The notes under the pieces are model-generated. The model did no database searches and had not been told where the DNA came from. It was given only the letters and a program-made list of their open reading frames with translations. A DNA stretch of 64,000 nt from IMG/VR virus record IMGVR_UViG_3300046514_000858, positions 29,746 to 93,745 of that record; one strand, written 5' to 3'. Shown here piece by piece: positions 697 to 59,922 of the stretch (its first letter is position 1; the number at the start of each line of letters is the position of its first letter). This DNA is from a virus. A program made the position numbers and the translations under genes.

Positions 697-712
697 CTTC
701 TTTCCGCAACCG

Positions 713-780: not shown

Positions 781-805
781 TACTCTCGTGATGAATGGAG
801 GAAAA

Positions 806-1018
806 ATGATCGTGAGCAAGGAAGCCAAGGCCGCCGCGCGCGCCGAGAAGGCGCTGGACAAGCAGATCGAGGCCGAGTACTACAAGCAGGGCTCGGGCGT
901 GATGGTCGACATCATGGACATCGGGAAAATCTTCCGCGACGTCAAGCTGGAGCTCGCCGCGGGGACGCCGTTGCCGACTGCCATTTCGGCAGCTATCGCC
1001 AAGTACCGCAAGAACTAG
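806..1018 (+). CDS. hypothetical early protein
   Basis: GGAGG SD, ATG 806; in-frame GTG/ATG at 788/791. Confidence 0.75.
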   Translation: MIVSKEAKAAARAEKALDKQIEAEYYKQGSGVMVDIMDIGKIFRDVKLELAAGTPLPTAISAAIAKYRKN

Positions 1019-1042
1019 ATTCCGTTTCCCGCGTCACTTTCC

Positions 1043-1069
1043 TGTTACGGCCGATACGGTGGGTCGTCT
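1043..1069 (+). promoter_or_regulatory. class I promoter TGTTAC-N16-CGTCT
   Basis: Motif copy; GTG 7 nt downstream (1077). Confidence 0.8.
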
Positions 1070-1076
1070 TACTTCC

Positions 1077-1175
1077 GTGATGAGAAAGATGATCGCGGCC
1101 CTGCGGGAGTGGTTCTCTGCGGGGCAGGTTGACCCGGCGGAGTTGAAGAAGGTGCTCGACGGGTTCTGGATCTAG
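1077..1175 (+). CDS. small peptide (MMRKMIAALREWF...), not in ORF track
   Basis: Starts at the GTG 7 nt after a class I promoter; 32 codons. Confidence 0.5.
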   Translation: MMRKMIAALREWFSAGQVDPAELKKVLDGFWI

Positions 1176-1191
1176 CGGAAGGGAGACTCGG

Positions 1192-1320
1192 ATGGAGATG
1201 AAGATGTCGGAAGGGGAGCTGCTGGTGATGGCGCTGGGCGGAGATCCGGCGGAAGCGTGGGAGCTGTTCGAGCCCGCCCCGGTGGCCCCCGCCCCGGCTC
1301 TGGTCTTGGTGGAAGCGTAA
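1192..1320 (+). CDS. small hypothetical peptide, not in ORF track
   Basis: GGGAG SD, ATG 1192; stop abuts the SD of the next gene. Confidence 0.5.
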   Translation: MEMKMSEGELLVMALGGDPAEAWELFEPAPVAPAPALVLVEA

Positions 1321-1330
1321 GGAGGATCGG

Positions 1331-2245
1331 ATGGCGAAGAAAGAAGAGAAGCTGACCCCGGGCCTCGACAAGGTGAAGGCATCGCTCGACGCGACCTTCG
1401 CCCGTATCGAGCCCAAGCTGAAGAGCATCCTGCAGGCGGCCTACCGCAAGGACGCGGATCGAGCCTTCGCGGCTCTGATGGAGTACGCGCCGAAGGCCAA
1501 GACGGGAGACCGACTGGGTGAGTACGGTTCCCCGTCGGAAAATTACTACCACTGGACCCAGTACGACAAGGACGCCGCCATGAAGGTGTGGTACGCGTCC
1601 TTCAAACGCACCGCCGACGACTCGGTGCCCGCCGCGGCTTACAAGACGATGCCTCCAGATCACATGCAGTCTTTCGCCGACATCGTGGAATGGGCCAAGT
1701 ACCTCTCGGTCAGCTACCACAACGCTGACAAGCGCGCGAAGGATTCCGTCGAGAACGCGCGGGACTCCTTCGTTCGGAAGAACGTCGCGAAGTTCGGCAA
1801 CGTCCTCGTCGCCTGCGACATCACCACGGTCGACGGTCGCGTCGAGTGGAAGGGTGGATACTTCGAGGGCTTTCTGAAGATCGGCCTGCCGACCGGCCTG
1901 ATCACGGCCGAGGTCTCCCTGAAGTACGTGCTGCGCCGGATCCCCCGGACGACGCCCTACTACCAGTATCCCCTGATCTTCCTCTGCGCCAAGATCGGCG
2001 AGAAGGAAATGAACCGTCCCTCGGAGGCCGAGCTCCGCGAGGCGCTCGGCAACGGCAAAGCCCCGACTCCCGCGGAGGTCTTCGCCGCCAAGGGCTACTG
2101 CCCCGGGTCCGGGAAGGAATCGCACCCGACGTTGAAGGCGTGGGGCCGCGACCGCAAGATTTGCAGCGAGTGCAAGGGCGTGTTCTACGCGAGCCCCACG
2201 TCCGGACTCGTGCGTGCCCACCGCGCCTACGTGAAGAAGAGCTAG
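1331..2245 (+). CDS. hypothetical protein with C-terminal Zn-ribbon
   Basis: GGAGG SD; CPGSG...CSEC...H motif; phage-like codon usage. Confidence 0.75.
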   Translation: MAKKEEKLTPGLDKVKASLDATFARIEPKLKSILQAAYRKDADRAFAALMEYAPKAKTGDRLGEYGSPSENYYHWTQYDKDAAMKVWYASFKRTADDSVPAAAYKTMPPDHMQSFADIVEWAKYLSVSYHNADKRAKDSVENARDSFVRKNVAKFGNVLVACDITTVDGRVEWKGGYFEGFLKIGLPTGLITAEVSLKYVLRRIPRTTPYYQYPLIFLCAKIGEKEMNRPSEAELREALGNGKAPTPAEVFAAKGYCPGSGKESHPTLKAWGRDRKICSECKGVFYASPTSGLVRAHRAYVKKS

Positions 2246-2254
2246 GAGGATTCA

Positions 2255-2527
2255 ATGAGTCGCTACGACGAGAATTCGCCGCGCGCGCTGATCGCCAAGA
2301 TCCGCGAGAGCTACAAGCAAAACTGCGTGATCGACATGCGCGGCTTCTGGATGCCCGCCGACGAGAGCGGCAAAGAGCCGGTGCAGCTCACGGACGAGCA
2401 GAAGCTCGCCGTCGAGACGCGTCTCAAGGACAACTTCCGGATCTGGTGGCAGACGTGGGTCGGCCCGCGGCTCGATATGATCGAAGACCGCGTCGTCAAG
2501 AATCGCAAGCCGATTCCTCCGGCCTAG
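2255..2527 (+). CDS. hypothetical protein
   Basis: GGAGG SD, operonic. Confidence 0.7.
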   Translation: MSRYDENSPRALIAKIRESYKQNCVIDMRGFWMPADESGKEPVQLTDEQKLAVETRLKDNFRIWWQTWVGPRLDMIEDRVVKNRKPIPPA

Positions 2528-2544
2528 TCGCGTTCTTAGATGGT

Positions 2545-2808
2545 ATGAACGTCACAAGGTGGTACAAGACCTTCGCAGCAATCGCCGGGTGGAAGAAGCG
2601 CCGCCTTCATGATCGTGCCGAGTACGTCGGCACCGACTTCCGCTGCTTCGTGGTGAATCACGACGCGCTGGTGAGCTGGTCGCGCAAGTTCAAGTTCGAT
2701 TTCTACATCAGCGACGACAAGGTGTCCATCCACGAGCCCGGACTCATCATCCACGCGGGCTGGATCGTCGCCGTGATCCGCTGGCCGTTCGGCCGTCGCA
2801 TCAGGTAG
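2545..2808 (+). CDS. hypothetical protein (leaderless, class II motif at 2530)
   Basis: GCGTTCTT then 7 nt then ATG. Confidence 0.6.
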   Translation: MNVTRWYKTFAAIAGWKKRRLHDRAEYVGTDFRCFVVNHDALVSWSRKFKFDFYISDDKVSIHEPGLIIHAGWIVAVIRWPFGRRIR

Positions 2809-3334
2809 GCTTGGCCGCGTAGCGTTCCAGCGCCCCGAGGCTGCGCTTGGCGCGCTTCAGTCGCGTGGTGAGAGCCTTGATCTTCCGCTCCAGTCCCTTG
2901 ATCTGCCGCTGGCGCTTCTCGATCTTCTTCGCCCGGATGTCAGCGATCAGCGGAGGAGGGATCGGCGGGAGCTCGGCTTTCTTCAGAGCGCCATTCATCC
3001 AGCCGTTCTTGATTGCCCATGCCCGCAGCTTCCGCTCGATCCGCGCGTGCACTTTCGAGTGGGGCCGCCCTCCGATCTTCTCGGTGTAGTACCAGTGCGA
3101 GAAGAGGTGGATCAGATCACCCCATCCCTTCTCGACGTTGACACGGAACTCGCTTCCGCGCAGCCACGTATAGCGGTTGCCGGAAGTCTCCGTGATCCGG
3201 TAGGGGAATTTGTGGCCGCTGAGATGTCGGTACATCTTCCGGACTGCTCGGGTGGCCTCGTCGAGGGTCAGTGGAGTGACCGGGTCGACCGGCTTGATCA
3301 GGTTCACTTTCTCGTACGCCTGCGCGATGTTCAC
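2801..3334 (-). CDS. hypothetical protein, HxxxH/His-rich with basic coiled-coil tail
   Basis: AGGAGG SD; IHLFSHW...PHSKVH. Confidence 0.7.
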   Translation of the reverse strand: MNIAQAYEKVNLIKPVDPVTPLTLDEATRAVRKMYRHLSGHKFPYRITETSGNRYTWLRGSEFRVNVEKGWGDLIHLFSHWYYTEKIGGRPHSKVHARIERKLRAWAIKNGWMNGALKKAELPPIPPPLIADIRAKKIEKRQRQIKGLERKIKALTTRLKRAKRSLGALERYAAKPT

Positions 3335-3343
3335 GCCGTCCTC

Positions 3344-3664
3344 CTAGAATTTCAACTGGCCGTTGATCTTGTCCCGTAGATTCCTCGCAGCCACGAGCCG
3401 CCCGCGGGAATCGACGTCGTTGTTATCGCTCGCGATATCGATGATGCTTCCGCAAACGGTCTCAGCCAACCACTTCGCATCGCGGTCATTCAACTCCAGC
3501 CACGACCGTGTCTCCTCCGCGCGCGCGAGGCGCGCGTACAGGTGCGTCGCATACCCCAGCGCGCAGGTCTTGTACTGCTCGACGCCCTCGTCTTCGATCC
3601 ATGCTTCGAGGTCGTTCCACACCGCGCGTTCCTGAGCCCGCGTGACTTTCACCCGCACCGTCAT
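3344..3664 (-). CDS. hypothetical protein
   Basis: AAGGAG SD before ATG 3664. Confidence 0.65.
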   Translation of the reverse strand: MTVRVKVTRAQERAVWNDLEAWIEDEGVEQYKTCALGYATHLYARLARAEETRSWLELNDRDAKWLAETVCGSIIDIASDNNDVDSRGRLVAARNLRDKINGQLKF

Positions 3665-3674
3665 ATCTCTCCTT

Positions 3675-3878
3675 CTAGCTCTGGGCCAGAACCGCCAGTC
3701 CGAACACGATGGCCTTGTCGAACGCGTCGTCGTCCAGTTTCTCCAGTTTCTCCCACGACTCCGCACTCACGAGGTACCCGTACTTCGGGATCACGCCCGA
3801 GGTTTTCGCGAAAATCTTGAAGCCCTTCTTGGTTTGCTGGGCTTTGAAATTCGCCGTCTCTTTCACCGCAACGCCCAT
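3675..3878 (-). CDS. hypothetical early protein
   Basis: AAGGAG SD; in-frame GTG at 3908 after a class I promoter. Confidence 0.7.
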   Translation of the reverse strand: MGVAVKETANFKAQQTKKGFKIFAKTSGVIPKYGYLVSAESWEKLEKLDDDAFDKAIVFGLAVLAQS

Positions 3879-3915
3879 GCCGATCTCCTTTCCACACGTA
3901 CCGATCACGTAATAT

Positions 3916-3942
3916 AGACGACCCACCCCGCCGATCATGACA
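3916..3942 (-). promoter_or_regulatory. class I promoter (minus strand) TGTCAT-N16-CGTCT
   Basis: Motif copy, divergent from the copy at 3967. Confidence 0.8.
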
Positions 3943-3966
3943 CGAAATCGCGATTATCATTTTCTT

Positions 3967-3993
3967 TGTTATACCCGCCCGGGTGCGGCGTCT
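3967..3993 (+). promoter_or_regulatory. class I promoter TGTTAT-N16-CGTCT
   Basis: Motif copy; GTG 7 nt downstream (4001). Confidence 0.8.
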
Positions 3994-4000
3994 TACTGTC

Positions 4001-4186
4001 GTGATGAGCGAAGGAGGTCGAGTGAGTGTGAAGCGCGGGCCCGGGAAGAAGAGCTACTGGCTGACCTGCTGGGCGATGAAGGCAAGCGCGGCTGGCATGC
4101 CCATGGAAGAGATCAAAGTGAAGATGGCGGAGATGAAGAAGAAGTCCATCGCCGAGATCATGGCGTGGACGAAGGAGAACTCATGA
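4001..4186 (+). CDS. small hypothetical early protein
   Basis: Leaderless GTG 4001, or SD-led GTG 4022 in the same frame. Confidence 0.65.
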   Translation: MMSEGGRVSVKRGPGKKSYWLTCWAMKASAAGMPMEEIKVKMAEMKKKSIAEIMAWTKENS

Positions 4187-4503
4187 AAGCGAAACTGAAG
4201 CGCCTCCCGGTGTACCGCTCGGCCCTCGGCGATTCCTCGAACGACGGGATCTCCGGGAAGGAATCCCACGTCTATCTGATCGAGCTCGACGGCTTGATCC
4301 CGCCCCAGATCCCGCTAGAGGCCGTCTTCCGCGCCGAACAGCGCGGTCCGAAGTACTTCGCCCTGATTCCCTTCGTGTCGCCCGTCAAGATGTGCGGCCC
4401 GATGTTCGGCGGGAACCTCGCCATGGACGAGGATTCCGGCCGGATCTACAAGATCCACGACCGCTTCGAGACGCCGGAGCTGAATGCACTGTTGAGTTCT
4501 TGA
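4183..4503 (+). CDS. conserved phage hypothetical (GPMFGGN...IHDRFE motif)
   Basis: AAGGAG SD, ATGA overlap; motif recognised from phage early proteins. Confidence 0.7.
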   Translation: MKAKLKRLPVYRSALGDSSNDGISGKESHVYLIELDGLIPPQIPLEAVFRAEQRGPKYFALIPFVSPVKMCGPMFGGNLAMDEDSGRIYKIHDRFETPELNALLSS

Positions 4504-4513
4504 CGCTTTTTCC

Positions 4514-4540
4514 TGTCACGGGCGTCGGGGTCGGGCGTCT
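4514..4540 (+). promoter_or_regulatory. class I promoter TGTCAC-N16-CGTCT
   Basis: Motif copy; GTG 7 nt downstream (4548). Confidence 0.8.
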
Positions 4541-4586
4541 CAGATACGTGGCGATGATGATCGGAAACTGCGGAAAGGAGATCGGT

Positions 4587-4967
4587 ATGAGCGAGCTGAA
4601 TCTGGTGGCCCTGTTCGGGAAGGCCCACGCGGCGGGGAACGCGGCGGCTGCGGCCTTGATCCCGGTTCCCATGATCGTCGCGGAGCACGCGAGTCCGCTG
4701 GATGACGCCTCCCCGGTGGTCCAGAGCTGGCAGGTGGAAGGCGGGGTGTGCGGCTTCGCGTGGGTGACGATCTCCCCCGGGACCTCGAAGGCAGCGCGGT
4801 TCGCGAAGGAGCACTACGGCGCGCGGAAGGGGTACTACGGCGGAATGGAGCTCCGGGTGTCCCAGTTCGGGCAGAGCATGCAGAAGAAGGAAGCCTACGC
4901 CGGAGCGTTCGCCGCGGTCCTGAGCGCCGCGGGGATCACGGCCTACTCCGGTTCTCGGATGGACTAA
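4587..4967 (+). CDS. conserved phage hypothetical (CGFAWV...QS..KKEAYA..FA...SRMD family)
   Basis: AAGGAG SD; widespread phage early-gene motif. Confidence 0.8.
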   Translation: MSELNLVALFGKAHAAGNAAAAALIPVPMIVAEHASPLDDASPVVQSWQVEGGVCGFAWVTISPGTSKAARFAKEHYGARKGYYGGMELRVSQFGQSMQKKEAYAGAFAAVLSAAGITAYSGSRMD

Positions 4968-5003
4968 GCGCATTTCTTCCGAGATCACGCGTTCTTGTCT
5001 GGT

Positions 5004-5465
5004 GTGAAATGTACGCAATGTCCCCGTATCGCGCAATACGATAGGCGACGTTGTCCTAAGTGTTTGGCAACTTCGCGCGCTTGTGCTAGGGCATATTATG
5101 CCGCCAACCCCGAACGTGCTCGTGCTGCGGTTCGAGCCTATCAGGCAACTCACAAGGCGGCGCTGAGACTCTACAACCGAAAGTGGCGCACCAAGAAATG
5201 TCGGGAGTACAATTCTTGGGCGTGCATGATTCAGCGTTGCACAAATTCCAAACACCATGCCTTTCACAACTACGGTGGCCGCGGCATTAAGGTCTGCGCG
5301 CGCTGGCGTAATTCCTTTGAGCACTTTCTCGCCGACATGGGTCCGCGGCCAAGTCCGAAGCATTCCATCGACCGCTTCCCCAACAACGACGGCGACTACG
5401 AGCCCGGCAACTGTCGCTGGGCTACGGCGAGAGAGCAGGCGCGTAATCAACGAGGGCGTGTATGA
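5004..5465 (+). CDS. HNH homing endonuclease
   Basis: W..MIQRC, YGGRGIKVC.RW, F..FLADMG.RP, SIDR..NNDGDYEPGNCRWAT; lower GC; GTG start 7 nt after a class II motif. Confidence 0.9.
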   Translation: MKCTQCPRIAQYDRRRCPKCLATSRACARAYYAANPERARAAVRAYQATHKAALRLYNRKWRTKKCREYNSWACMIQRCTNSKHHAFHNYGGRGIKVCARWRNSFEHFLADMGPRPSPKHSIDRFPNNDGDYEPGNCRWATAREQARNQRGRV

Positions 5466-5728
5466 CCATAAAATTTATCGACGTCGACCAGAAAGCCATC
5501 GCGGATCGGGACCCGAACCCCATCAACATCCGCATCCGGACGCCGATGCCATCTCCCCTCGGAGAGTTCGCGTGCCTGCGCGCGCGCGAGGTATTTATCT
5601 CCGGCCCCAGTGAGATCCGCTACTGCCCGGTTCATCCCCAGCCGTTCGGTGCGCGCGTCTGGGTTCAGACCGATTCACCGATCATGTACAAGTCCAGCGA
5701 ATTATTGGACTGGCAGCGAATCCCGTGA
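5462..5728 (+). CDS. conserved phage hypothetical
   Basis: I.GPSEI.Y.P..P...GARVW motif; overlapping stop/start. Confidence 0.65.
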   Translation: MTIKFIDVDQKAIADRDPNPINIRIRTPMPSPLGEFACLRAREVFISGPSEIRYCPVHPQPFGARVWVQTDSPIMYKSSELLDWQRIP

Positions 5729-6216
5729 ACTCCACGCTGGCCGCCCCGACCCTCGATCTCAAGGTTGAGCCGATCCTGCGACCCGACGGCAAGGCCCGGG
5801 CCTACGCCATCAACGGGCGCATGCACACGCTGATCGACCGGGACAACCAGCGCTATCTCTACCGCCTCGGGCGTTTCATCGTCAAGGTCGGCGTGCAGAG
5901 CAAGATGGAGGCCGCTCGCGCAGCCGGGTCGTGCGCCGGGTCGCCCTACTTCTGGCCGCTCGTCGGCTCGGGCAAGGTGAACGGCCTCAAGTACGACGAC
6001 GTCTGGTGGACCGCGCAGGAGATCCTGCCGTTGAAGCGCGCGATCTACACCTACGACCGGGACGAGTGGTGCGCGGCCTACCATGTGATCCTCGGGGTGG
6101 CCGCCGATCACCACATCTACGATATCGAGCTGGACGAATTCCCGGACGGCCTGATGAGGCCGCACAACTGGACCATTTTCCGGGACACCCCGGTCATCTA
6201 CGACTACGGCATGTAA
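5725..6216 (+). CDS. minimal protein-kinase-like fold protein
   Basis: IVK, then D...RPHNW...VIYDYG resembling the catalytic loop and DFG motif. Confidence 0.5.
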   Translation: MNSTLAAPTLDLKVEPILRPDGKARAYAINGRMHTLIDRDNQRYLYRLGRFIVKVGVQSKMEAARAAGSCAGSPYFWPLVGSGKVNGLKYDDVWWTAQEILPLKRAIYTYDRDEWCAAYHVILGVAADHHIYDIELDEFPDGLMRPHNWTIFRDTPVIYDYGM

Positions 6217-6226
6217 GGAGGACAAC

Positions 6227-6439
6227 ATGGGACAGCAGAAGAAAGACGCGCCCGTTCAGAAAACCCCCAAGAAGGGCAAGAGTGTGCACACGGTGCACTC
6301 CTCGGTGAAGTACGCCATCCGGCACGGCTACACGCCGGGATCGAGCCCGCGTCGCACGGGCAAGCGCTGGAATTCCGGCCGTCGCGAGCGCATGCTCAAC
6401 GCCCCGACGAAATCGGCGGGCCTGCCGAAGGTGCACTGA
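6227..6439 (+). CDS. small basic protein
   Basis: AGGAGG SD; K/R-rich. Confidence 0.6.
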   Translation: MGQQKKDAPVQKTPKKGKSVHTVHSSVKYAIRHGYTPGSSPRRTGKRWNSGRRERMLNAPTKSAGLPKVH

Positions 6440-6452
6440 CCGCCGCTTTTTC

Positions 6453-6479
6453 TGTTACGCCGCGCCTCCATGGTCGTCT
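6453..6479 (+). promoter_or_regulatory. class I promoter TGTTAC-N16-CGTCT
   Basis: Motif copy; GTG 7 nt downstream (6487). Confidence 0.8.
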
Positions 6480-6504
6480 CTATTACGTGATGAATGGAGG
6501 AAGC

Positions 6505-6975
6505 ATGGACGCCAAGGCAGCCGGTCCGATCAAGCAGGTCTGGGAAGGCGCGGTCGGGACGGCCAAGCGCTGTCGCGCGGTTCTAAAAGCCAAGTTCCCC
6601 GGCACCAAGTTCTCGGTCCGCTCCAAGACGTACTCCGGCGGATCCTCGGTTTACATCGACTGGACCGATGGTCCCCTGACGGAAGCTGTCGACAAGCTCG
6701 TGAAACCCTTCGAGGGCGCGTCCTTCGACGGCATGGTCGACCTGATGAGCTACGTCGACGTGGTCGTGGTGGATGAGTCCGGCGAGCTGGTTCAGATCCA
6801 CGGCGCGAACTACATCCTGACCCAGCGTTCCCGCTCGGCTGAGCGCGAGAAGCTGATCGAGGCGGAGCTCCGGCAGTACTGGTGCGAGAAGGAAGCAGAG
6901 GAAGCGATCAAGTTCCACGACTGCCGCCTGTACGCGGAGTCGGAAGCTCGGATGATGAAGGAGGGCAAGCTGTGA
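6505..6975 (+). CDS. LPD29 (large polyvalent protein domain 29) protein
   Basis: LK..FPGTKFSVRS..YSGGSS..I.WTDGP....V......F.G..FDGM.D. Confidence 0.8.
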   Translation: MDAKAAGPIKQVWEGAVGTAKRCRAVLKAKFPGTKFSVRSKTYSGGSSVYIDWTDGPLTEAVDKLVKPFEGASFDGMVDLMSYVDVVVVDESGELVQIHGANYILTQRSRSAEREKLIEAELRQYWCEKEAEEAIKFHDCRLYAESEARMMKEGKL

Positions 6976-7307
6976 TGGATCAAGCGAAGATGGTCGGCGT
7001 GCTGGTGCTGGCTCGGGTCGCCGCGGAGGACTCCGTGCGTCCGTTCTCGGACGGCGGGACCTGCAATATGGATTCCTGCGTGATCGTCGCCCCGCCGGAG
7101 GTGAACATGGCGCTGGCGTGCGCCGCGGCCGGGCTGGGCTCCTACTACCGCGGAGGCAGCAAGAAGCGCGACATGTGGGCCGGGAAGTGGTTTCTGCACG
7201 CGCCCAAGGGCGGGCAGGGCGACGCCCGCACGAAGCAGGCCGAGGCGATGGACAAGGTCATGAAGGAGTACGGCATCGAGTCGACGGTGTACTACCAGAT
7301 GGATTGA
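6975..7307 (+). CDS. conserved phage hypothetical (DGGTCN.D...GQG..RT..AEAM...YYQMD)
   Basis: TGATG coupling; recognisable phage family motif. Confidence 0.75.
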   Translation: MDQAKMVGVLVLARVAAEDSVRPFSDGGTCNMDSCVIVAPPEVNMALACAAAGLGSYYRGGSKKRDMWAGKWFLHAPKGGQGDARTKQAEAMDKVMKEYGIESTVYYQMD

Positions 7308-7323
7308 TGGTCCAAGAGGGTGC

Positions 7324-8073
7324 ATGTTGAAAGCGTCTCGTCCCAGTTCTCCCTTCGACGACCCCTTCCGTAAGGGCAACGCGAACTCCGGCAACCATGG
7401 CCATTCCGGTCGCCCGGGCCAAGTCGGAGGCAGCGCCCCCGGCGGCGGGCAGAACGCGGCGGTCAATCCCGTGATCCGGGCCCAGACCGAGCACGTCATG
7501 GCGCAGGCCCGGGCGATGGACAACAAGATCACGCCTCTGATCGCCATGACCGTCGACACGAGCGGTGGCCAGATGATCGGTCTCGAACATCGCATCAAGA
7601 CCTCGGCCGACCGCATCTCCCAGAAGATCGCCGAGAAGATGGCCACCGAGAATCTCACGCCTGAGCAGGCGCGTAACAACATCTACGACTCCCTCCGCTT
7701 CACGGCATCGTTCAGTCCGGACCAGTACACCGCCGGAGTGGAGAAGCTGTTGTCCAACCTCAAGGCGCAGGGTATCGAAGCAGCCCCGGGCAAGGACAAG
7801 AATTATTGGCCCCCGCCGCCCGGTGTCTACCACGGCCTCAACTACGTGATGACCGACAAGAGCGGCTTCAAGTTCGAGCTCCAGTTCCACACGCCCGAGA
7901 GCTTTGCCATCAAGCAGCAGAACCACACCGTCTACGAAGCATTCCGGAACGCGGGAGGCAGCAAGGAGCAGCGCCTCCAGCTCTGGAACGAGATGAACCA
8001 GCGCTGGGCTGGCGTGACCGTGCCGCCGGGCGTCAAGCGGCTCGGCCGGTCGGTGAATCAGGAACAGGCATGA
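7324..8073 (+). CDS. RelA/SpoT-domain toxin (Apk2/Tas1-like alarmone synthetase) with N-terminal SGNHGHxGRPG virion-protein motif
   Basis: RIKT...I..K, D.LRFT, KNYW, YHGLN, FELQFHT, NH.VYE; late motif GTCCAAG at 7310. Confidence 0.8.
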   Translation: MLKASRPSSPFDDPFRKGNANSGNHGHSGRPGQVGGSAPGGGQNAAVNPVIRAQTEHVMAQARAMDNKITPLIAMTVDTSGGQMIGLEHRIKTSADRISQKIAEKMATENLTPEQARNNIYDSLRFTASFSPDQYTAGVEKLLSNLKAQGIEAAPGKDKNYWPPPPGVYHGLNYVMTDKSGFKFELQFHTPESFAIKQQNHTVYEAFRNAGGSKEQRLQLWNEMNQRWAGVTVPPGVKRLGRSVNQEQA

Positions 8074-8083
8074 GGAGGATGGT

Positions 8084-8314
8084 ATGACGAAGATCCGCTA
8101 CTTCGAGTTGCAGCCCGCCACGGAACCCAAGCCGACCGGGATCCTGCGCCTCACGATCACGGACACCCAGCTCACGCTGGAGCACTACGATCCCAAGTCG
8201 GCCACATGGATCGATGACCCCAAGGCCCTCGACTTCCTCAACGGCGACGACGCCGACGCCGAGGAGATCCCGTCGGGCGAGGCCCTCAAGTTGATCTTGC
8301 AGCTCACCGTCTGA
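8084..8314 (+). CDS. probable immunity protein for the upstream toxin
   Basis: Small acidic ORF directly downstream; Y-F...LR...E.Y....W.DD...EEI...EA pattern. Confidence 0.6.
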   Translation: MTKIRYFELQPATEPKPTGILRLTITDTQLTLEHYDPKSATWIDDPKALDFLNGDDADAEEIPSGEALKLILQLTV

Positions 8315-8344
8315 TTTGTAGCATCTGGCGGCGTTCCTACAAGT

Positions 8345-9022
8345 ATGAGGATGCTGCTGGCCCTCCTATTCCTGATCCCGCAGGACTGCGAACAAGAGCA
8401 CCCCAACCGCGACGGCCTGAGTACGGACGATCTCGTCGAGGCCCTCGAAGCGGCCGATATAGACGCGGCCAACTGGCGGGCGTCGTACCATCGCATTGAC
8501 TTAGAGAACGACGAGATCATAGCGCGCATGTCGCTCGTCTCCGCCGAGTGGGAGTTCATGGTCAATGAGTGCGAGCGCGCGGGACAGGCCCACGTCCTGA
8601 ACACTCTTGAGCGCGTGCTGGTGCAGCGCTTTATCGAACCTCTCGATCTCTGGATGTCGAATCCCCATGTGACGGGCCATCCCTTCCCTCGCTTCGTCGA
8701 CGGCGAGTGCTGGTACGCCATCGTGATCCAGCCTCTGGACGCACTGAAGAGCGATCCGGTCTGGCTGAAGTTCCCGCTGGAGACGAAGAAATACGGCAGC
8801 GCCCTCGGTTATGGAGACGATAAGAACGAGAGCATCCTCCAGCTCCACTACAAGCGCACGATGCGCAAGAGCATCTTGGATTCGCTGGAGCACCATCTCG
8901 TGCTGCTATTGGACCAGCCCGAGTGCGTCACCACACTCATCACCGGAACGCCGCACCTCTACCGCCTGACCTTCCGGGAGAGCAACATAGAGCATCTCCG
9001 CAAGGAAGATCGGATCTATTGA
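8345..9022 (+). CDS. hypothetical protein with short N-terminal signal-like segment
   Basis: MRMLLALLFLIPQD; class II motif 6 nt upstream. Confidence 0.65.
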   Translation: MRMLLALLFLIPQDCEQEHPNRDGLSTDDLVEALEAADIDAANWRASYHRIDLENDEIIARMSLVSAEWEFMVNECERAGQAHVLNTLERVLVQRFIEPLDLWMSNPHVTGHPFPRFVDGECWYAIVIQPLDALKSDPVWLKFPLETKKYGSALGYGDDKNESILQLHYKRTMRKSILDSLEHHLVLLLDQPECVTTLITGTPHLYRLTFRESNIEHLRKEDRIY

Positions 9023-9474
9023 TGGGCGCGCACATCCTTGGCGATTTCCGCACGCAGCCGCACTGCGAATTGCCCGAGTCCTACTTCACCGGCCGAGACT
9101 GCTGGGTCGACTGTCGCGCGCCCGACATGTTGCACATCTCCCGGGACTGCAACATCGGCTGGGAGGCCCGGCTGGTCTGTCAGTCCCACAACCCGATGCC
9201 CGGCAAGTTCGGCGACGTGACCGCGCGCTCGATTATCATTCGGCCCAAGGCGTTTATCGCCGGGTTCGCGACGCTCTACAACTGCGAGATCGGCGAGGGG
9301 TCTGTCGTGGCGCTCGGGGCCGTGGTGAGAAGTCGGATCGTGCCGCCGTGGGTGATCGTCGAGGGGAATCCGGCGCGCATCGTGAGCAGCTTCGACCATG
9401 TGCTCGGGAAGTGGGTCGAGGTGCCGGGGGAATCAGGACTTGGGGAGAACCTTCCAATGCGTCATCGGCGGTAG
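9022..9474 (+). CDS. hexapeptide-repeat (LbH) acyltransferase
   Basis: IGEGSVVALGAVV...VPPWVIVEGNPARIV. Confidence 0.85.
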   Translation: MGAHILGDFRTQPHCELPESYFTGRDCWVDCRAPDMLHISRDCNIGWEARLVCQSHNPMPGKFGDVTARSIIIRPKAFIAGFATLYNCEIGEGSVVALGAVVRSRIVPPWVIVEGNPARIVSSFDHVLGKWVEVPGESGLGENLPMRHRR

Positions 9475-9984
9475 GACCTCGCCATCGGGCACGACGATCC
9501 CGTAGCCCGCGACCGGCACGGGCACCGAGTAGTCGGGCACGATCACCCGGCCGTACTGCTGGAGCACCGCGGGCGGGACCTTGTGGCATCCGGCCTGCCC
9601 GCAATCCAAGTCGACGTTGTTGACGTAGAGGATCCCTTCCGGGAAACGATTGTGGACGATAGCCAGCTCTTCGCCGAGCGGTCTCTCCGATCCCCACGTC
9701 GTGTCGAAGTAAAACACCGACGGCCGGGGCGCGTCGACCTCGCGCAGGTATTCAACGGAGCTGGCGACCTTGAGCTGCAGCCACGGGTACCGGCCCCGCG
9801 CGATCTCCAGCGTCTCGGCGTTGATGTCGCATCCCATCCCGATCTTGCCGGGCACGAGCTCCGAGAAGTACCCGACGGTCTCGCCCTCGTGCACGCCGAC
9901 CTCGACCCAACCCTTGATCTGGAACCGGCCGATCATCCAACCCGTGATGCACATGCGCTGGAAATTGTCTTGATGAGTGGTCAC
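9433..9984 (-). CDS. class I SAM-dependent methyltransferase
   Basis: VEVGVHEGET, GCDI, FYFD; GTG 5 nt after GTCCAAG. Confidence 0.7.
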   Translation of the reverse strand: MTTHQDNFQRMCITGWMIGRFQIKGWVEVGVHEGETVGYFSELVPGKIGMGCDINAETLEIARGRYPWLQLKVASSVEYLREVDAPRPSVFYFDTTWGSERPLGEELAIVHNRFPEGILYVNNVDLDCGQAGCHKVPPAVLQQYGRVIVPDYSVPVPVAGYGIVVPDGEVLPPMTHWKVLPKS

Positions 9985-9988
9985 GTAA

Positions 9989-10006
9989 TCTTGGACCAGT
10001 CCAAGA
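9989..10006. promoter_or_regulatory. back-to-back late motifs TCTTGGAC-CA-GTCCAAGA
   Basis: Palindrome of two GTCCAAG boxes between divergent methyltransferase genes. Confidence 0.7.
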
Positions 10007-10025
10007 GAATATCAAGGGAATAATT

Positions 10026-10631
10026 ATGATCGACAAAGGACTGCTGTGGGACGACACCAAGATGATGGGATTCTATCCCGTGATCGATCCCGTGTACGGC
10101 CCGGACTATTGGGCCAAGTACGAGGGCTACGGCAAGACGCCCATGGGCAAGGCCATCACCGCGTGCCGGGCGTGGTTCGTGGGCCAGTGCCTGAAGCCGG
10201 ACGAGCAGCTCCTTGACGTCGGCATCGGATCGGGCGACTTCGTTCGGTCCCGTCCTAACACGTTCGGGCAGGACGTGAACCCTGTCGCGCTGGCGTGGTT
10301 GCAGGGCCTCGACCTGCTCGGCAACTACGACGAGATCCCCAACTACAGTTTTTGGGACACGCTCGAACACATCTTGGACGCGAAGGGCGTCGTCGCCAAG
10401 ATCAAGAATTACTGCTTCGTCTCGCTCCCGATCTTCCGCGACCGCGAGCATGTCCTGAAGAGCAAGCACTTCCGGCCCGACGAGCATTACTGGTATTGGA
10501 CTGAAGTGGGTCTGATCAACTGGTTCGATGAGCAGGGCTTCGCTCTGCGCAGGATGACTTCGATTGAGTCAGTGCTCGGCCGCGAAGACATCATGAGCTA
10601 CGCCTTCCAGCGCTACGGCGTTCGGTCGTGA
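10026..10631 (+). CDS. SAM-dependent methyltransferase
   Basis: LLDVGIGSG, G.DVN, FWDTLEHI, KHFRPDEH. Confidence 0.85.
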   Translation: MIDKGLLWDDTKMMGFYPVIDPVYGPDYWAKYEGYGKTPMGKAITACRAWFVGQCLKPDEQLLDVGIGSGDFVRSRPNTFGQDVNPVALAWLQGLDLLGNYDEIPNYSFWDTLEHILDAKGVVAKIKNYCFVSLPIFRDREHVLKSKHFRPDEHYWYWTEVGLINWFDEQGFALRRMTSIESVLGREDIMSYAFQRYGVRS

Positions 10632-11329
10632 ACGCAGCCGTCCTTGTCCCTAGCTACGACAAGTACGCGGACGTCTGGCCCATCGCCGAGACGTGCTTCT
10701 CCCGCTTCTGGCCCGACCGCTCCATCCCCATGTACTGGATGACGAATGGGCTTCCGGTCCCGCGCATGGCCACGGGCGTGTGCGTGCCCGCGCGCGCGAG
10801 GCAAGAGTGGGGTGAGGGCATTGCTCAGGCGCTGGACTCCGTGCCCGAGGATCTGGTGCTCTTCTGGATCGAGGAGGTCTTGCTTCTCAGTCCCGTCCCC
10901 AATCAGCGGATCATGGAAGCCATTCGTCTGATGAACGAGGATCCCACCATTCAGGTCGTCAACGTCAACCGGTACTACTACGCCGCCGCTGCGGGCGATG
11001 GCTTCATTGACGCGCCCGACAAGATGTTCGACGTGATGGCGATGCCCGCGATCTACCGGAAGTCCGTGCTGAAGAGGCTGGTGTTAGAGAACCCGGACCC
11101 GCCGGAGTTCGAGCGCCGCTCGGCGATCAGCTTCCACAAGCTCTACCCCGACGGCCGAGTCCTGATCCCGGGCTCGAAGATGTTTCGCTTCTGCGACAAC
11201 CTCATGATCATCGGCCGCTGGCGGAAGTGTGCGCTGAATCACTTGCAGGAGTTGCAGATCCCGGTCGACGCGTCCATCCGCGGCGTCGCCGATGACGACT
11301 GTCGCTTCATGAACGGGACGGATCAATAA
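10628..11329 (+). CDS. putative glycosyltransferase (GT-A-like), paralog of 45282
   Basis: VLVPSYDKY.D.W...FWPD...W...LFWIEE, shared with the 45282 ORF. Confidence 0.6.
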   Translation: MNAAVLVPSYDKYADVWPIAETCFSRFWPDRSIPMYWMTNGLPVPRMATGVCVPARARQEWGEGIAQALDSVPEDLVLFWIEEVLLLSPVPNQRIMEAIRLMNEDPTIQVVNVNRYYYAAAAGDGFIDAPDKMFDVMAMPAIYRKSVLKRLVLENPDPPEFERRSAISFHKLYPDGRVLIPGSKMFRFCDNLMIIGRWRKCALNHLQELQIPVDASIRGVADDDCRFMNGTDQ

Positions 11330-11330
11330 T

Positions 11331-11419
11331 TGGTCGCAGGTGGAGGAGTCGAACCTCTGCCCACCGCCGGAGACTTGGCCTTGGGACACGGGAGCTACCC
11401 GTCCTCCGGATCACCCGCG
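11331..11419 (-). ncRNA. tRNA-like RNA / pseudo-tRNA with encoded CCA
   Basis: CGCGGGTG/CACCTGCG stem, GAGG-TTCGACT-CCTC T-arm, ACCA end; no canonical anticodon arm. Confidence 0.6.
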
Positions 11420-11594
11420 ATTTGTTGTGCACCGTATAGCTCTTCCGTCTATGCCCAGTAAAATTTACGACACTTGGGGTGCATCCGCACAAGGCCACAT
11501 TTGCTGGCGACCCACTTCCATCCCTCCCGGAGTCTGTTTCGACACAGCCAGCAGAGCGGCAGCCTTCGTTTTCTTTTAGACTTCTTCATAGCGT

Positions 11595-11930
11595 TCAATC
11601 GTGTGTCTGCTTACAAGCAGGGCACGGGTAACCGGGAACGTAGGCCGCCGCCTCGCACTTCGGGGTTGGACGAATCCGCTTTTCTGTTGCCGTCAGAATA
11701 TCTTCCATGCTGTTCGCGGCCTGCCGGATCGTGAACCAGTGGCGTTTTAGTTCGTCAATCTGCAGGTTTGCTGTGCGCAATTCGAGGGTTCGCGTATTGG
11801 CGAGATCCCACCCCTCCTTCGCGTGCTTCTTCATCAACTCCAATTCGGCCTTGTTGCAGTAGCTTTCCGGGTGTGGCTCATGCGGTAGAGACTTGCTCCC
11901 GCAAATCTTGCACGTTCTAAAGTCGCTCAT
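11595..11930 (-). CDS. hypothetical protein with Cys motifs and coiled coil
   Basis: CKICG...C, C...CPAC; lower GC. Confidence 0.55.
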   Translation of the reverse strand: MSDFRTCKICGSKSLPHEPHPESYCNKAELELMKKHAKEGWDLANTRTLELRTANLQIDELKRHWFTIRQAANSMEDILTATEKRIRPTPKCEAAAYVPGYPCPACKQTHD

Positions 11931-12400
11931 GCTTCGATCTCGTAGCGGTCGTGCCGCACCCAGCCCTTCTTGGTCCAGAACCCCCAGCTCCGGCGGATCG
12001 CGCCGCAGAAGACTAGAGTCACGATGGGGCGGCTGCTGACCCAAGTGATGGCGTGCCTGTCTTCGGCGCGCTTCCAGTTCACCCACCGGACGTGCCGCGG
12101 CTCACGGTCGGCATCACAGTCGTCGCACCGGCACGGGCCGCAGCAGGGTTCGGTCGGCACGTCCTCGACGTAGCTGCCCCAGAGCACGAGGGACAGGAAC
12201 GACCACGGATGGTCGTGCAGGTCCCGCTGCTGGTCCGGGCGGTAGATCAGGTGCAGCTTGATGGAGAACCACGGGGTGAGGAGAATGTTCAGGCGGCGCA
12301 TGTACACGCTGCGCCCGTCGCCGATGATCTTCCAGTACCACCAGCCCCACTTGCGAGCGGCCTTGGGGTCGGTCAGCTCGTCGCCTTCCAGCTTCTCCAT
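11927..12400 (-). CDS. cupin-fold protein
   Basis: LHDHPW.F.S.VL.G.Y.E...H.I; class II motif 6 nt upstream. Confidence 0.8.
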   Translation of the reverse strand: MEKLEGDELTDPKAARKWGWWYWKIIGDGRSVYMRRLNILLTPWFSIKLHLIYRPDQQRDLHDHPWSFLSLVLWGSYVEDVPTEPCCGPCRCDDCDADREPRHVRWVNWKRAEDRHAITWVSSRPIVTLVFCGAIRRSWGFWTKKGWVRHDRYEIEA

Positions 12401-12425
12401 GTCTACAAGAACGCGCGCATTTTCC

Positions 12426-12452
12426 TGTAATGCGCATGGGCGTGGGTCGTCT
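12426..12452 (+). promoter_or_regulatory. class I promoter TGTAAT-N16-CGTCT
   Basis: Motif copy; GTG 7 nt downstream (12460). Confidence 0.8.
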
Positions 12453-12477
12453 TATAGGCGTGATGAAAGGAGCCGAC

Positions 12478-12696
12478 ATGACCTGCGAAAACTGTGGGAA
12501 GCGCACGATCACCGCGACGTTCGTCTACTGTTGCGCCCGCGCGACTTTCCTGCCCATCGCCTGCTCGGCCAAGTGCCAGAAGGCCCTCGGCGGTGTCGAC
12601 CCGACCAAGGTCGCCGACTGCGGTGAACACTGTGCCTGCGGGGACTGCGTCGACTGTGATCTGGCGGCCCGCGACAAGGCCGCGCTCAAGAGCTAG
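12478..12696 (+). CDS. Cys-rich small (Zn-binding) protein
   Basis: AGGAG SD; multiple CxxC. Confidence 0.65.
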   Translation: MTCENCGKRTITATFVYCCARATFLPIACSAKCQKALGGVDPTKVADCGEHCACGDCVDCDLAARDKAALKS

Positions 12697-28069: not shown

Positions 28070-30571
28070 ATGGGCGTAACGAACGAACAGGTCCTGACCG
28101 CGGTCCTTCGCATGCGCGACGAGCTGTCGCCGGGCATGAAGAAGGCTCAGCAGGCGACCAGCGATTTCGACAAGACGATGGGCGGCGTCAAGAAGACGCT
28201 CATCACCCTCGGAACCATACTGGCCGGGCTACAGGTCGCCCAGTTCATCAAGAGCATCATCAACACCGCCAGCGAGCTCGAAAAGCTGTCGAAGCAGACG
28301 GGCGTCTCCACCACCAACCTGCAGAAGATCGCCGCGTCCGCCAAGTCCGCGGGCGGGGACATTCAAGACGTCGCGATGGGCTTCCGCACGCTCAGCATCA
28401 ACGCCCAGCAGGCCGCCGCGGGCAATGATGTGGCGCGGGCTAAGTTCGAAGGTCTCGGCATCAGCATTCGTGACGCCAGCGGCAAACTCAAGAGCGCCGA
28501 GATTCTCTTCGGTGAGGTCGCGGATGTCATCCACGACACCGAGAGCTCGACCCTGCGCATGACCATCGCTCAAGAGCTGTTCGGACACTCTGCCCTGCGC
28601 CTCCTCCCGACACTCGAACAGGGCCGGGATGGTCTGTACGCTGTCGGCGATGCAGCGGAGCGGTTCGGCGGGATCCTGAGCAAGGACTCGGTCAAGGCCC
28701 TCGACGATTTCGGGAATCAACTCACCGCGACCAAGGATGTCATGACGGCGGTGATCGGCAACTGGCTGGTCCAGTCGGGCGTCACCGTGCCCGCGATCAT
28801 CGACCTGTTCGGCAAGCTGGTGCAGGGCGTGCAGGGCGTCATGCTGGGCTGGAAGATCATTTTCAATTCCGCGTGGCAGACGATCAAGTTCTTCGCCAAC
28901 GCGGTCAATGATATCCTGACCGGCATTGTCACGACCATCGCGGTCTTTCTCGCCAAAGCCCTGCATCCTATGACCGAGTTCGCCAAGACTCTGCTCCAGT
29001 GGTTCGGCAAATACCTGCCGGATGGCATCAAGGATACCCTCGGCGGCCTGATTTCCTTCGCCGACAACCTTGCGGGCAAGGGACTCGTCGATCCGCTGCA
29101 GGAGACTATCTCCAAGATCGACAAAGGTTGGGAGCAGCTCGGCACGAACGTCGACAAGTACAACAACGAGACCGCGGCGAACACCGTCGAAAAGGTCGAC
29201 CTGACCCTCAACAAGCTCGAAGAGCTCAAGGCCGCCATCGGAGCGGTCAGCGGCACGGCTAAGAAGGCCGCCGCCACGCCTGTTCTGAGTGCTTCGGCCG
29301 CGCTCGACGATCTCCTCCGTCTCGGCGGCGAGGCGACAAACGCCGGACCGAACGGCAAGGTCTCGGATGCAGAGCGCGAGATCCGCATGAAGGAAGCCTC
29401 TCTGCGGAGCAAGCTGCAGGCTTTTCAGGAGGAAACCGGCATCAAGGTCACCACCGAACAGCTCCGCCAACTCGCTATCGCGGCGCAGCAGGGCGATGAG
29501 TCGCTCAAGAAGATGCTGGACGACATCAAGCGGATGGCGGAGGCCGACCCGTTCACCGGTTTCGAGCTGGCGATCTACGATCTGTCGAAGGCGTCCTACT
29601 CCTTCCGCGACGCGTGGACGGGGATTTTCAATGACCTGAAGTCTGGCTTCTCGGACATGTTCGCCAACGCCATCGAGGGCACGGACAGCTTCTCGAACGG
29701 CTTCAAGAAGGCGATGAAGTCCCTTAAGCACGACCTGATCAAAATGTTCACGGACTTCGCCACATCGTCGCTGTTCCAGTCGGCGGGCGGCGGCCTCCTC
29801 GGAATGCTGGGCCTCGGCGGGGGCGTGAGCGGAGCTCCGGGATCCACGACCGGCCCCGGCAGCAACAACATGGCGCAGCAGGGCACGAACATCGCCGGGC
29901 AGGCGCTCTCCTCCGGCGGCGTGACCATGTCCAACTTCACCACCGCTCTGGGCGGGGTCGGCATGAGCGCGGGATCGCTCGGTGCGGTGGCCGGGCTCGG
30001 CGCGGCCGGTACTGCGCTGGCGGTGAGCGGCGTCTCGAACGGCAACGTCACACAGGGCACGGTCGGCGGCATCGTGGCGGGCGCGAGCATGGGCGCTATC
30101 GTGGGATCCATCATCCCGGGCCTCGGCACCGTGGCGGGCGCGGTCATCGGTGGCATCATCGGCGGCGTCACGGGCTACCTCGGCTCCAGCCGCAAGAAGC
30201 GCAAGAAGGCGCGCGAGGCCGCCCGGCACGCGGCGGAGGCGCTGGCCGCCTACAACGCTGCCATCGCCAAGGCCCGCGTCGTCCTGAAGCAGGACATCCG
30301 GAATAAGATGGGCGGCGGGCTGGCGACCGAGGAAGCGGCCTCCGACTACGGGCGGCTCTTCTCCGGTGACCTCTCGGCCGACGAGATCATGGCCTTCGGC
30401 GATCCCGCCGCGGTGGCCGCGAAGGCGTCCGAGGTGAACCGGCAGACCAACGTCAACGCGCCCATCACGGTGAACGCGCAGATCACAGGCTCGTACGACG
30501 TTGCCGTTCTCGCGCAGGAGCTGAGCTACCATCTGCAGAATCAGATGGGCGGTTCGGCGGGAGGCATCTGA
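28070..30571 (+). CDS. tape measure protein
   Basis: 833 aa Ala/Gly-rich helical; LSKQTGVST..LQ, A.ELFG, LLP.L. Confidence 0.9.
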   Translation: MGVTNEQVLTAVLRMRDELSPGMKKAQQATSDFDKTMGGVKKTLITLGTILAGLQVAQFIKSIINTASELEKLSKQTGVSTTNLQKIAASAKSAGGDIQDVAMGFRTLSINAQQAAAGNDVARAKFEGLGISIRDASGKLKSAEILFGEVADVIHDTESSTLRMTIAQELFGHSALRLLPTLEQGRDGLYAVGDAAERFGGILSKDSVKALDDFGNQLTATKDVMTAVIGNWLVQSGVTVPAIIDLFGKLVQGVQGVMLGWKIIFNSAWQTIKFFANAVNDILTGIVTTIAVFLAKALHPMTEFAKTLLQWFGKYLPDGIKDTLGGLISFADNLAGKGLVDPLQETISKIDKGWEQLGTNVDKYNNETAANTVEKVDLTLNKLEELKAAIGAVSGTAKKAAATPVLSASAALDDLLRLGGEATNAGPNGKVSDAEREIRMKEASLRSKLQAFQEETGIKVTTEQLRQLAIAAQQGDESLKKMLDDIKRMAEADPFTGFELAIYDLSKASYSFRDAWTGIFNDLKSGFSDMFANAIEGTDSFSNGFKKAMKSLKHDLIKMFTDFATSSLFQSAGGGLLGMLGLGGGVSGAPGSTTGPGSNNMAQQGTNIAGQALSSGGVTMSNFTTALGGVGMSAGSLGAVAGLGAAGTALAVSGVSNGNVTQGTVGGIVAGASMGAIVGSIIPGLGTVAGAVIGGIIGGVTGYLGSSRKKRKKAREAARHAAEALAAYNAAIAKARVVLKQDIRNKMGGGLATEEAASDYGRLFSGDLSADEIMAFGDPAAVAAKASEVNRQTNVNAPITVNAQITGSYDVAVLAQELSYHLQNQMGGSAGGI

Positions 30572-54600: not shown

Positions 54601-54694
54601 GCTCCCGTAGTTCAACAGCTAGAACCGCGTCAAAGGTCGCTGCACAAAAACAGTGGACATGAAGCTAATGCAGGTTCAAATCCCGCCGGGGGCT
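54601..54694 (+). ncRNA. tRNA-like RNA with elongated anticodon arm
   Basis: GCTCCCG/CGGGGGC acceptor, GTTC/GAAC D-arm, GCAGG-TTCAAAT-CCCGC T-arm; ~39-nt hairpin in the anticodon position; no CCA. Confidence 0.65.
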
Positions 54695-54837
54695 CTTAGA
54701 AAAGCTGGGGCAGAACGGGTGCAACTCCCGGACCACAATGGACGTGAAAGCGTTCGTGGATGGTGTAACAGCAGCACTCCCCACACTCTAGATTTTACCC
54801 ATCCTGTGCTTGGGAGTGTGGCAGGCACAGGACTTAT

Positions 54838-59534: not shown

Positions 59535-59922
59535 GAACCCAGCGCGTCCCAACTGCTTTGCACGTCTGCACGATCCGCAGAACGGGTTGTGTCAGGCGTG
59601 CGCGGTCATGGTGACCTGCGGCGTCGCGCGCATGAAGACGTGGTTGCTTGAAGGTCCGATGCCGACGATCCGCACGCCGCAGGTCCGCGTCAACGACTGG
59701 CCGCCGGGCACCTGCCGCTGGGCCGCCCGGGAGGCGATCAACCGACTCGACGGCACCTTCACCGAGATGGACGTGATCATCCCGTATCACGCCATCTGCC
59801 GTTCGATCAAGCATCGCCCGGGTAACCCCGAGCGCACAATCCGCCGGGTCGTCTCGGATCTCGTGCGCGCAGGCGTTCTTATCAGAACAGCGAAGGCGAA
59901 GCTACAACATGGATCTCACTGA
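59524..59922 (+). CDS. Cys-motif plus winged-helix-like protein
   Basis: CF...D....CQ.C.....C; P..TIRR...DL...G.L.R. Confidence 0.6.
   Translation: MASENPARPNCFARLHDPQNGLCQACAVMVTCGVARMKTWLLEGPMPTIRTPQVRVNDWPPGTCRWAAREAINRLDGTFTEMDVIIPYHAICRSIKHRPGNPERTIRRVVSDLVRAGVLIRTAKAKLQHGSH

Follow-up and report, generated by a model that had tools for sequence, protein, structure and literature searches.

The Promoter Copies of the Window

The DNA studied here, hereafter the window, is a 64,000-nt stretch comprising bases 29746–93745 of the 93,745-bp IMG/VR virus record IMGVR_UViG_3300046514_000858, a phage genome of 62% GC with 127-bp direct terminal repeats. Encoded in the window are a terminase, a capsid protein, a portal protein that includes a MuF domain, and a DnaE-type polymerase to which a uracil-DNA glycosylase domain is fused. 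This study concerns a family of promoters of the extracytoplasmic function (ECF) sigma type, most of which carry a start codon at the predicted first base of the message (+1), commonly followed in the same frame by a second start that is led by a Shine–Dalgarno (SD) sequence. The whole genome holds 19 copies, each composed of TGTNAY or TGAAAC, exactly N16, and CGTCT or CGTCC, and at all eight sites in the window TGTNAY lies exactly 16 nt upstream of CGTCT. Positions refer to the window unless they are preceded by "genome", and to the plus strand unless marked (−).

The first copy (81–137; TGTCAT 81–86, CGTCT 103–107) has GGC and no start codon at its predicted +1, G115; five bases past this G, ATG 120 shares the coding frame of ATG 132 and 135, the SD AGGAG lies at 125–129, and the gene ends at 407. 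Copy 2 (754–808; TGTTAC 754–759, CGTCT 776–780) carries GTGATGA at 788 and the SD GGAGG at 797–801, and ATG 806, in frame after 18 nt, opens an open reading frame (ORF) to 1018; ahead of it, at 712–746, lies the only clear intrinsic terminator found before any of the eight promoters. In copy 3 (1043–1091; TGTTAC 1043–1048, CGTCT 1065–1069), GTGATGA at 1077 is followed by no SD, the next in-frame ATG being 1089, and the 32-codon ORF to 1175 is probably translated from the 5′ end only. Copy 4 is on the minus strand (3876–3942; TGTCAT 3942–3937, CGTCT 3920–3916), with GTG at 3908–3906, the SD AGGAG at 3889–3885, and, 30 nt from the GTG and in frame, ATG 3878–3876 of an ORF to 3675.

The second start of copy 5 (3967–4024; TGTTAT 3967–3972, CGTCT 3989–3993, GTGATGA 4001, SD AGGAGG 4012–4017) is itself a GTG, at 4022, in frame after 21 nt and opening an ORF to 4186. 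Copy 6 (4514–4589; TGTCAC 4514–4519, CGTCT 4536–4540) shows the longest leader, in which GTG 4548 is followed by in-frame ATG codons at 4554 and 4557, the SD AGGAG at 4576–4580, and the in-frame ATG 4587 (39 nt) of an ORF to 4967. Leaders of 18 nt, again in frame, are found in copy 7 (6453–6507; TGTTAC 6453–6458, CGTCT 6475–6479, GTGATGA 6487, SD GGAGG 6496–6500, ATG 6505), whose ORF to 6975 encodes an LPD29 domain, and in copy 8 (12426–12480; TGTAAT 12426–12431, CGTCT 12448–12452, GTGATGA 12460, SD AGGAG 12468–12472, ATG 12478), whose ORF runs to 12696.

These positions bear out a preliminary description of the window, which had placed a GTG 7 nt after CGTCT in seven of the eight promoters, ATG 120 in frame with ATG 132 in the eighth, and an SD inside each leader except before 1089. 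CGTCT-N7-GTG was found precisely where it had been reported, at 776–790, 1065–1079, 3920–3906(−), 3989–4003, 4536–4550, 6475–6489, and 12448–12462, and the GTGs at 788, 1077, 3908(−), 4001, 4548, 6487, and 12460 precede the starts named in that description by 18, 12, 30, 21, 39, 18, and 18 nt, respectively, with no stop between. GC-rich DNA often leaves several frames open, so the coding frame was checked independently by the GC content of third codon positions (GC3), which was 0.83–0.94 in the GTG frame vs. ≤0.65 in the other two frames at the seven sites. The automatic SD-plus-start finder used for the leader calls picked the in-frame start in every SD-bearing leader and no SD at 1089. Searched as a bare pattern, CGTCT-N7-GTG gave 10 matches in the window, against 3.1 ± 1.7 in shuffled sequences, and seven of the 10 are the promoters described above.

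Promoter Type and Predicted Transcription Start

A −35 element that ends in AAC or TAC and has a T-rich flank, a 16-nt spacer, and a −10 element CGTC assign the family to the ECF promoters. Those recognized by sigma M/W/X/V of B. subtilis read tgaAAC ... CGTC/CGTA (PMC5758882), and ECF promoters have a CG dinucleotide immediately ahead of the −10 element (PMC6372665). The known ECF promoters share the −35, spacer, and −10 features seen here, while in this case about 19 copies occur in a phage without a recognisable sigma gene. Since no Sigma70_r2 or r4_2 match above the cut-off was obtained in this phage or in its relative G001 (described below), a host ECF sigma is presumed, by which the promoter is probably read.

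At the seventh and eighth bases after the −10 motif a pyrimidine–purine step is present in 19/19 copies of the studied phage and in 7/7 of G001 (26/26 in total). Such a step is the usual signature of a transcription start site. The structure of the M. tuberculosis sigma L complex indicates that function is best when the spacer leading to the downstream duplex is short (6 nt) and that transcription starts 2 nt upstream of the duplex (PMC6372665); by this geometry the start would fall no more than about two bases from the G of the GTG, the exact distance from the −10 element to the start not being fixed by that work and the end of the "−10 region" being ambiguous. A further constraint comes from a subclass of four copies, type B (−35 TGAAAC, then CGTCTCATCTNT; genome 21280, 22997, 23538, and 26174, all before the window), which have GGAGG in place of the GTG and whose messages have a predicted 5′ untranslated region of 7–12 nt that begins with the SD. 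As the SD of these copies begins exactly at the predicted +1, the start cannot lie further downstream. The conserved purine, the eighth base after CGTCT, is most likely the start site; the 5′-terminal position of the GTG is thus predicted from the pyrimidine–purine step in two phages together with a compatible ECF geometry (PMC6372665).

In-Frame Start Codons at the Predicted 5′ End

The GTG reported in the window recurs beyond it. Genome-wide, a GTG begins at the eighth base after CGTCT or CGTCC in 14 of the 19 copies, and all 14 open into the downstream gene; GC3 (0.75–0.94) marks the GTG frame as coding in 13 of them, while the copy at genome 21028 shows a flat GC3. In nine copies the start is doubled at +1 as GTGATG, although GTGATGA is not promoter-specific, as only nine of its 19 plus-strand occurrences are at a promoter +1. 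Ten of the 14 GTG copies carry AGGAG or GGAGG 4–6 nt before an ATG or GTG that is always in the frame of the 5′ GTG, the leaders being 18, 18, 18, 21, 21, 24, 30, 30, 30, and 39 nt long. The other four GTG copies, at genome 12432(−), 21028, 25765, and 30810 (window 1065), have no SD.

That an SD and a start codon follow the 5′ codon on the same predicted mRNA, in 10 leaders here and in three in-frame leaders of G001, bears directly on whether the second start is genuine. If the +1 GTG were the sole real start, the SD-like purine tracts and the ATG or GTG after them would be internal coding sequence. Four genes of exactly this pure type are present, and in mycobacteria, transcripts that begin with ATG or GTG are reportedly taken in general as translated from that codon, with in-frame downstream starts regarded as misannotations, a practice that Shell et al. 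are said to have followed in 2015. However, AGGAG or GGAGG followed by ATG or GTG falls within the first 13 codons in 10 of the 14 leaders, and weaker cores do so in three G001 leaders, while the chance expectation is a few per cent; the type B copies also show that the host uses strong SDs. We therefore regard purely leaderless genes as an improbable account of the SD-bearing copies.

Genes Without an SD and Related Leaders

The four SD-less genes are one indication that the 5′ codon is read, because without another translation route they require the 5′-terminal start. For the copies at genome 12432(−), 21028, 25765, and 30810, the finder detected no SD, and their genes are of the leaderless kind. 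The gene behind 12432(−) (genome 11881–12420) encodes a 180-aa HD_4 (RelA/SpoT-type hydrolase) protein, whose Pfam HD_4 domain begins at residue 11 when numbered from the GTG. The 21028 gene, a Cys-rich ORF of 61 codons, occupies exactly the space before the next promoter; its first 10 codons contain no start codon but the GTG, and no other frame offers a usable start, though GC3 is flat.

Related leaders differ by whole codons. Of the two paralogues behind 25765 and 21606 (47% identical), the former has a leader of 9 nt without an SD and the latter one of 30 nt with an SD, a difference of 21 nt, and the leader family that shares TGYGGAAAGGAG has lengths of 24, 30, 30, 30, and 39 nt, so that its indels come in threes. 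Copies without a start codon at +1 served as internal controls in both phages. Among these the leader was a multiple of 3 in 3/7 (in frame at 21280, 23538, and G001 63271; out of frame at 22997, 26174, 29848, and G001 15045), compared with 14/15 of those with one (Fisher p = 0.02). Over their first 50 nt, the predicted mRNAs were slightly less structured than random 50-mers (−10.1 vs. −13.0 kcal/mol), a difference that is not decisive.

The leader comparisons also weigh on the idea that the 5′ end is not translated at all, GTGATGA being instead a DNA or RNA element (an initial transcribed sequence, an operator, or a protein or RNase site) and the frame being inherited with copied promoter–leader–start cassettes. 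The leaders do fall into few families, e.g., 30521/36220, 13503/33734, and 21606/27477/33665(−)/34281, and the promoter-proximal genes are mutually unrelated, one pair excepted, as would be expected if cassettes spread by recombination; moreover, RNA polymerase core contacts at the start site could in principle account for the TG that follows the purine (T+1/G+2, PMC6372665). Yet each of the six distinct leader lengths is divisible by 3, the frame survives indels of 6 and 9 nt within one leader family, the SD-less genes need a start codon at +1, and the copies that lack such a codon do not hold the frame. G001 has ATGAAC or GTGAAC in place of GTGATGA, so that only the start codon is common to the two phages. 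We accordingly give little credence to an untranslated element. Its polymerase-contact version is unlikely in itself, as it would require that the RNA starts with U, and a separate candidate, that GUGAU is part of an extended SD pairing with 16S ...GAUCAC, was rejected, as G001 has AUGAAC or GUGAAC at that place.

A Related Phage With the Same Promoter

Relatives of the phage proved rare. No close relative was found among isolated phages by megablast of 12.5 kb or tblastn of the terminase, and none when viral contigs were scanned with the single terminase protein; the promoter pattern, sought in viral contigs, gave chance matches or G001 only. Terminase-profile scans of viral, genome, and metagenome contigs, together with a DnaE-profile scan, yielded one relative that shares the promoter, namely G001, a 96.8-kb record of 63% GC that is syntenic with the studied phage and whose terminase is 55% identical. 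Remoter relatives (terminase 40–50% identical, other GC content) lacked both this promoter and any repeated intergenic motif in the stretches examined. A DnaE look-up in a protein atlas indicated no usable host.

The DnaE-type polymerase of the window (59909–63565) comprises PHP, pol3 alpha, finger, and HHH domains and a C-terminal uracil-DNA glycosylase superfamily domain; that of G001 is 69% identical over its full length, and the alignment runs through the C-terminal uracil-DNA glycosylase region. Elsewhere in the window, at 54601–54695, ARAGORN called a tRNA-Pro (anticodon AGG) of unusual length, 95 nt. The promoter-proximal proteins of the studied phage had no tblastn match in G001, so the comparison of leaders is limited to paralogous ones.

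The promoters of G001 read TGTAAC or GGTAAC, N16, CGTCT, N7, and then ATGAAC, ATGAAC, ATGAAC, or GTGAAC. ATG or GTG (RTG) is at the +1 position in five of its seven copies, and four of these five are in frame. What is conserved between the phages is therefore the position and the identity of a start codon (A or G, then TG), while the bases that follow differ from GTGATGA. Three of the G001 leaders are 21 nt long and in frame, with a GGAG, AGGA, or GGGA core 6–7 nt before the ATG; the fourth RTG gene (ATGATGAAC) has no SD.

The fifth leader, at G001 51518, is the homologous leader minus one base (20 nt) and is frame-broken. Its upstream ORF (uORF) consists of the GTG and six codons and ends at the TGA in GGATGA, which overlaps the main ATG; a coupled uORF of this kind was found only here. 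The main ATG opens a 482-codon ORF with a GC3 of 0.93. This leader still fits the loading of ribosomes at the 5′ end, as the stop–start overlap would deliver the ribosome to the gene. The preliminary description had held that homologous leaders with frame-breaking indels would speak against its proposal; one such indel, a 1-nt deletion, does exist, but the stop of the resulting uORF overlaps the main ATG. In the same region of G001 (~51,420–51,560), two back-to-back promoter copies drive divergent genes, one through an in-frame 21-nt leader and the other through the 20-nt stop–start leader.

Strength of the Frame Signal

Counting both phages, 14 of the 15 SD-led leaders behind an RTG are in frame, for which p = 2e-6 at a chance of 1/3. 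Several observations weigh against a 5′ codon that is really read. In a crude control of 172 other genes, 49% of upstream RTGs were in frame, a figure that is inflated because starts are placed too far downstream. The leaders form about five sequence families, so the promoter copies are not independent, and the comparison covers two genomes. Window copy 103 and the four type B copies work without a start codon at +1, which is hence not obligatory; the peptides by which the upstream start would extend the proteins are not conserved; and the frame of the fifth G001 leader is broken. The transcription start is predicted, published ECF geometry permits a start 1–2 nt to either side, and an A lies two bases ahead of the GTG in 7/14 sites, where a start would give a 2-nt leader. 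Finally, the capacity of the host for leaderless initiation at GUG would follow solely from the four SD-less genes. Even at the harsh baseline of 0.49, however, 14/15 in frame gives p about 4e-4, and when only the six distinct leader lengths of the studied genome are counted, p = 1.4e-3 at 1/3 and 0.014 at the harsh baseline. These values indicate that the frame signal is real, although it comes from two genomes.

Four of the same observations would suit damage control, that is, a polymerase that prefers the C/G step and tolerates the TG after it, so that leaderless 5′ GUG initiation is unavoidable noise, kept harmless by selection for frame (or for stop–start coupling), and only the SD-led start matters for output. 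The type B copies place GGAGG at +1 and need no 5′ start codon, window copy 103 has GGC there, the extension peptides are unconserved, and the frame-broken G001 leader is tolerated as a coupled uORF. Nevertheless, four SD-less genes depend on the 5′ start, indicating that the route is productive in the host, and RTG in 14/19 and 5/7 copies, with the doubled GTGATG in nine, exceeds what tolerance would produce. Harmless noise thus seems unlikely to us, though it is the most serious of the alternatives considered.

Discussion

We favour, with moderate confidence, the explanation that the 5′ start codon is really read and that selection has shaped the leaders such that a ribosome which loads at the 5′ end still yields the product of the gene. 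Transcription would start at the conserved purine 8 nt after CGTCT, which in 14 copies is the G of a GTG, usually of GTGATG. The mRNA would thus open with one or two start codons, at which ribosomes could load without an SD (leaderless initiation). Four genes would rely on this leaderless route alone, while ten would add an SD and a second start 6–13 codons downstream, in the same frame and with no stop between. Both routes would lead to the same protein, with or without a short, unconserved N-terminal extension, and to judge from the leaders there are probably two ways to initiate each such protein. Selection would hold the leader to a multiple of 3, so that ribosomes loaded at the 5′ end do productive work and neither make junk nor block the SD.

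The SD-led start would be kept for read-through transcripts from upstream promoter copies, in which the GTG is internal and has no SD. The promoter-led genes are arranged head to tail, and a clear terminator precedes one of the eight window promoters, so most genes should also be present in read-through RNAs, although the terminator count comes from a simple scan and is weak evidence. The SD-led start therefore probably serves the read-through transcripts. Of the two-start proposal in the preliminary description, one part is upheld at the level of sequence comparison: the GTG at the predicted +1 behaves as an in-frame start codon, as judged from the frame, the SD-less genes, the relative, and the control copies. 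The purpose then suggested, redundancy for stressed hosts or for hosts with poor SD use, is possible but finds no support here.

Another reading would make the two starts a switch and not a redundancy, in which the phage or the infected cell shuts down SD-dependent initiation during infection, e.g., by nearby short, terminator-capped, pyrimidine-rich RNAs, and the early messages of the phage either stay translatable via the 5′ GUG/AUG or shift from the short to the long isoform. Two candidates for such RNAs were noted: at genome 28866 lies the anti-SD-like tract CCACCTCCTT, and window 697–708 is a 12-mer that pairs with the TGYGGAAAGGAG leader family. A switch must be rated as very improbable, the least probable of the readings weighed.

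The DNA around both candidates has features of its own. Genome 28831–28925, ~820–915 bases before the window, contains a promoter-like ATTTC-N13-CGTTCCT with no ORF after it, the 16S anti-SD-like tract CCACCTCCTTCTCTCCTCTG, and next a GC hairpin with a T run; it could be a short RNA. As an anti-SD-like RNA acting on the early leaders, the candidate at 28866 was rejected, since its predicted pairing with these leaders was no better than that with other SD regions. The 12-mer at 697–708, CTTCTTTCCGCA, lies after a stop codon and before the terminator at 712–746. It is complementary to the TGYGGAAAGGAG leader/SD region of the genes at genome 21606, 27477, 33665(−), and 34281 and also pairs well with the 33734 leader, the predicted duplexes having −18 to −22 kcal/mol vs. 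−11.2 ± 1.6 for other SD regions.

Comparable arrangements are known from other systems. In E. coli mRNAs that carry a 5′-terminal upstream AUG (5′-uAUG) ahead of an SD-led gene, the AUG at the 5′ end was shown to bind 70S ribosomes and to be translated, and the gene behind it can be affected (Beck, Fleming and Janssen 2016, PMC4965119), and these mRNAs resemble the present ones in having a 5′-terminal start codon and a downstream SD-led start on one molecule. That study chose out-of-frame cases and set aside the in-frame ones that "could produce longer isoforms"; its rhaB has an ATGA stop–start overlap like that of the G001 exception (PMC4965119). The E. coli cases are scattered, use AUG, and were tested at the bench, whereas those described here are predicted from sequence, make up a whole promoter regulon with an ECF-type promoter, are nearly always in frame, and mostly use GUG or GUGAUG.

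Another parallel is cI of phage lambda, which is SD-leadered when transcribed from PRE. From PRM, the same gene is leaderless (PMC10491246). Being leaderless on one transcript and SD-led on a longer one from an upstream promoter is the rationale also proposed here. Lambda, however, uses one AUG for both routes, whereas the studied phage has two start codons 6–13 codons apart and two predicted N-termini, in more than 10 genes.

Leaderless genes with GTG or ATG at +1 are common in Actinobacteria and Deinococcus-Thermus (see PMC7148126, PMC8485053, and PMC12340547). Their −10 element is so positioned that the A or G of the ATG or GTG is the first base transcribed, GTG serves as a leaderless start, and the four SD-less phage genes are alike in this; but the bacterial genes have housekeeping-sigma promoters and no SD, while the phage family has ECF-type promoters and mostly an extra in-frame SD-led start.

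Taken together, the family is a large natural case of a known oddity and no new mechanism; what is unusual is that it concerns a whole phage promoter regulon, in frame, of the ECF type, and with internal controls. Should mapping of the 5′ ends confirm the predicted starts, the phage would offer more than 10 natural mRNAs in which leaderless (70S) and SD-led (30S) initiation compete for one frame. Its leaders of 18–39 nt, SD-less copies, copies without a 5′ start codon, and one stop–start-coupled copy would form a built-in test set for the interplay of 5′-terminal start codons with SD sites and for the in-frame 5′-uAUGs, the case left out by the E. coli study. For annotation, the start codons of promoter-proximal genes are ambiguous in this phage lineage, and two N-termini are to be expected. 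More generally, leaderless initiation can be recognised in bare sequence when the frame is conserved with respect to a promoter.

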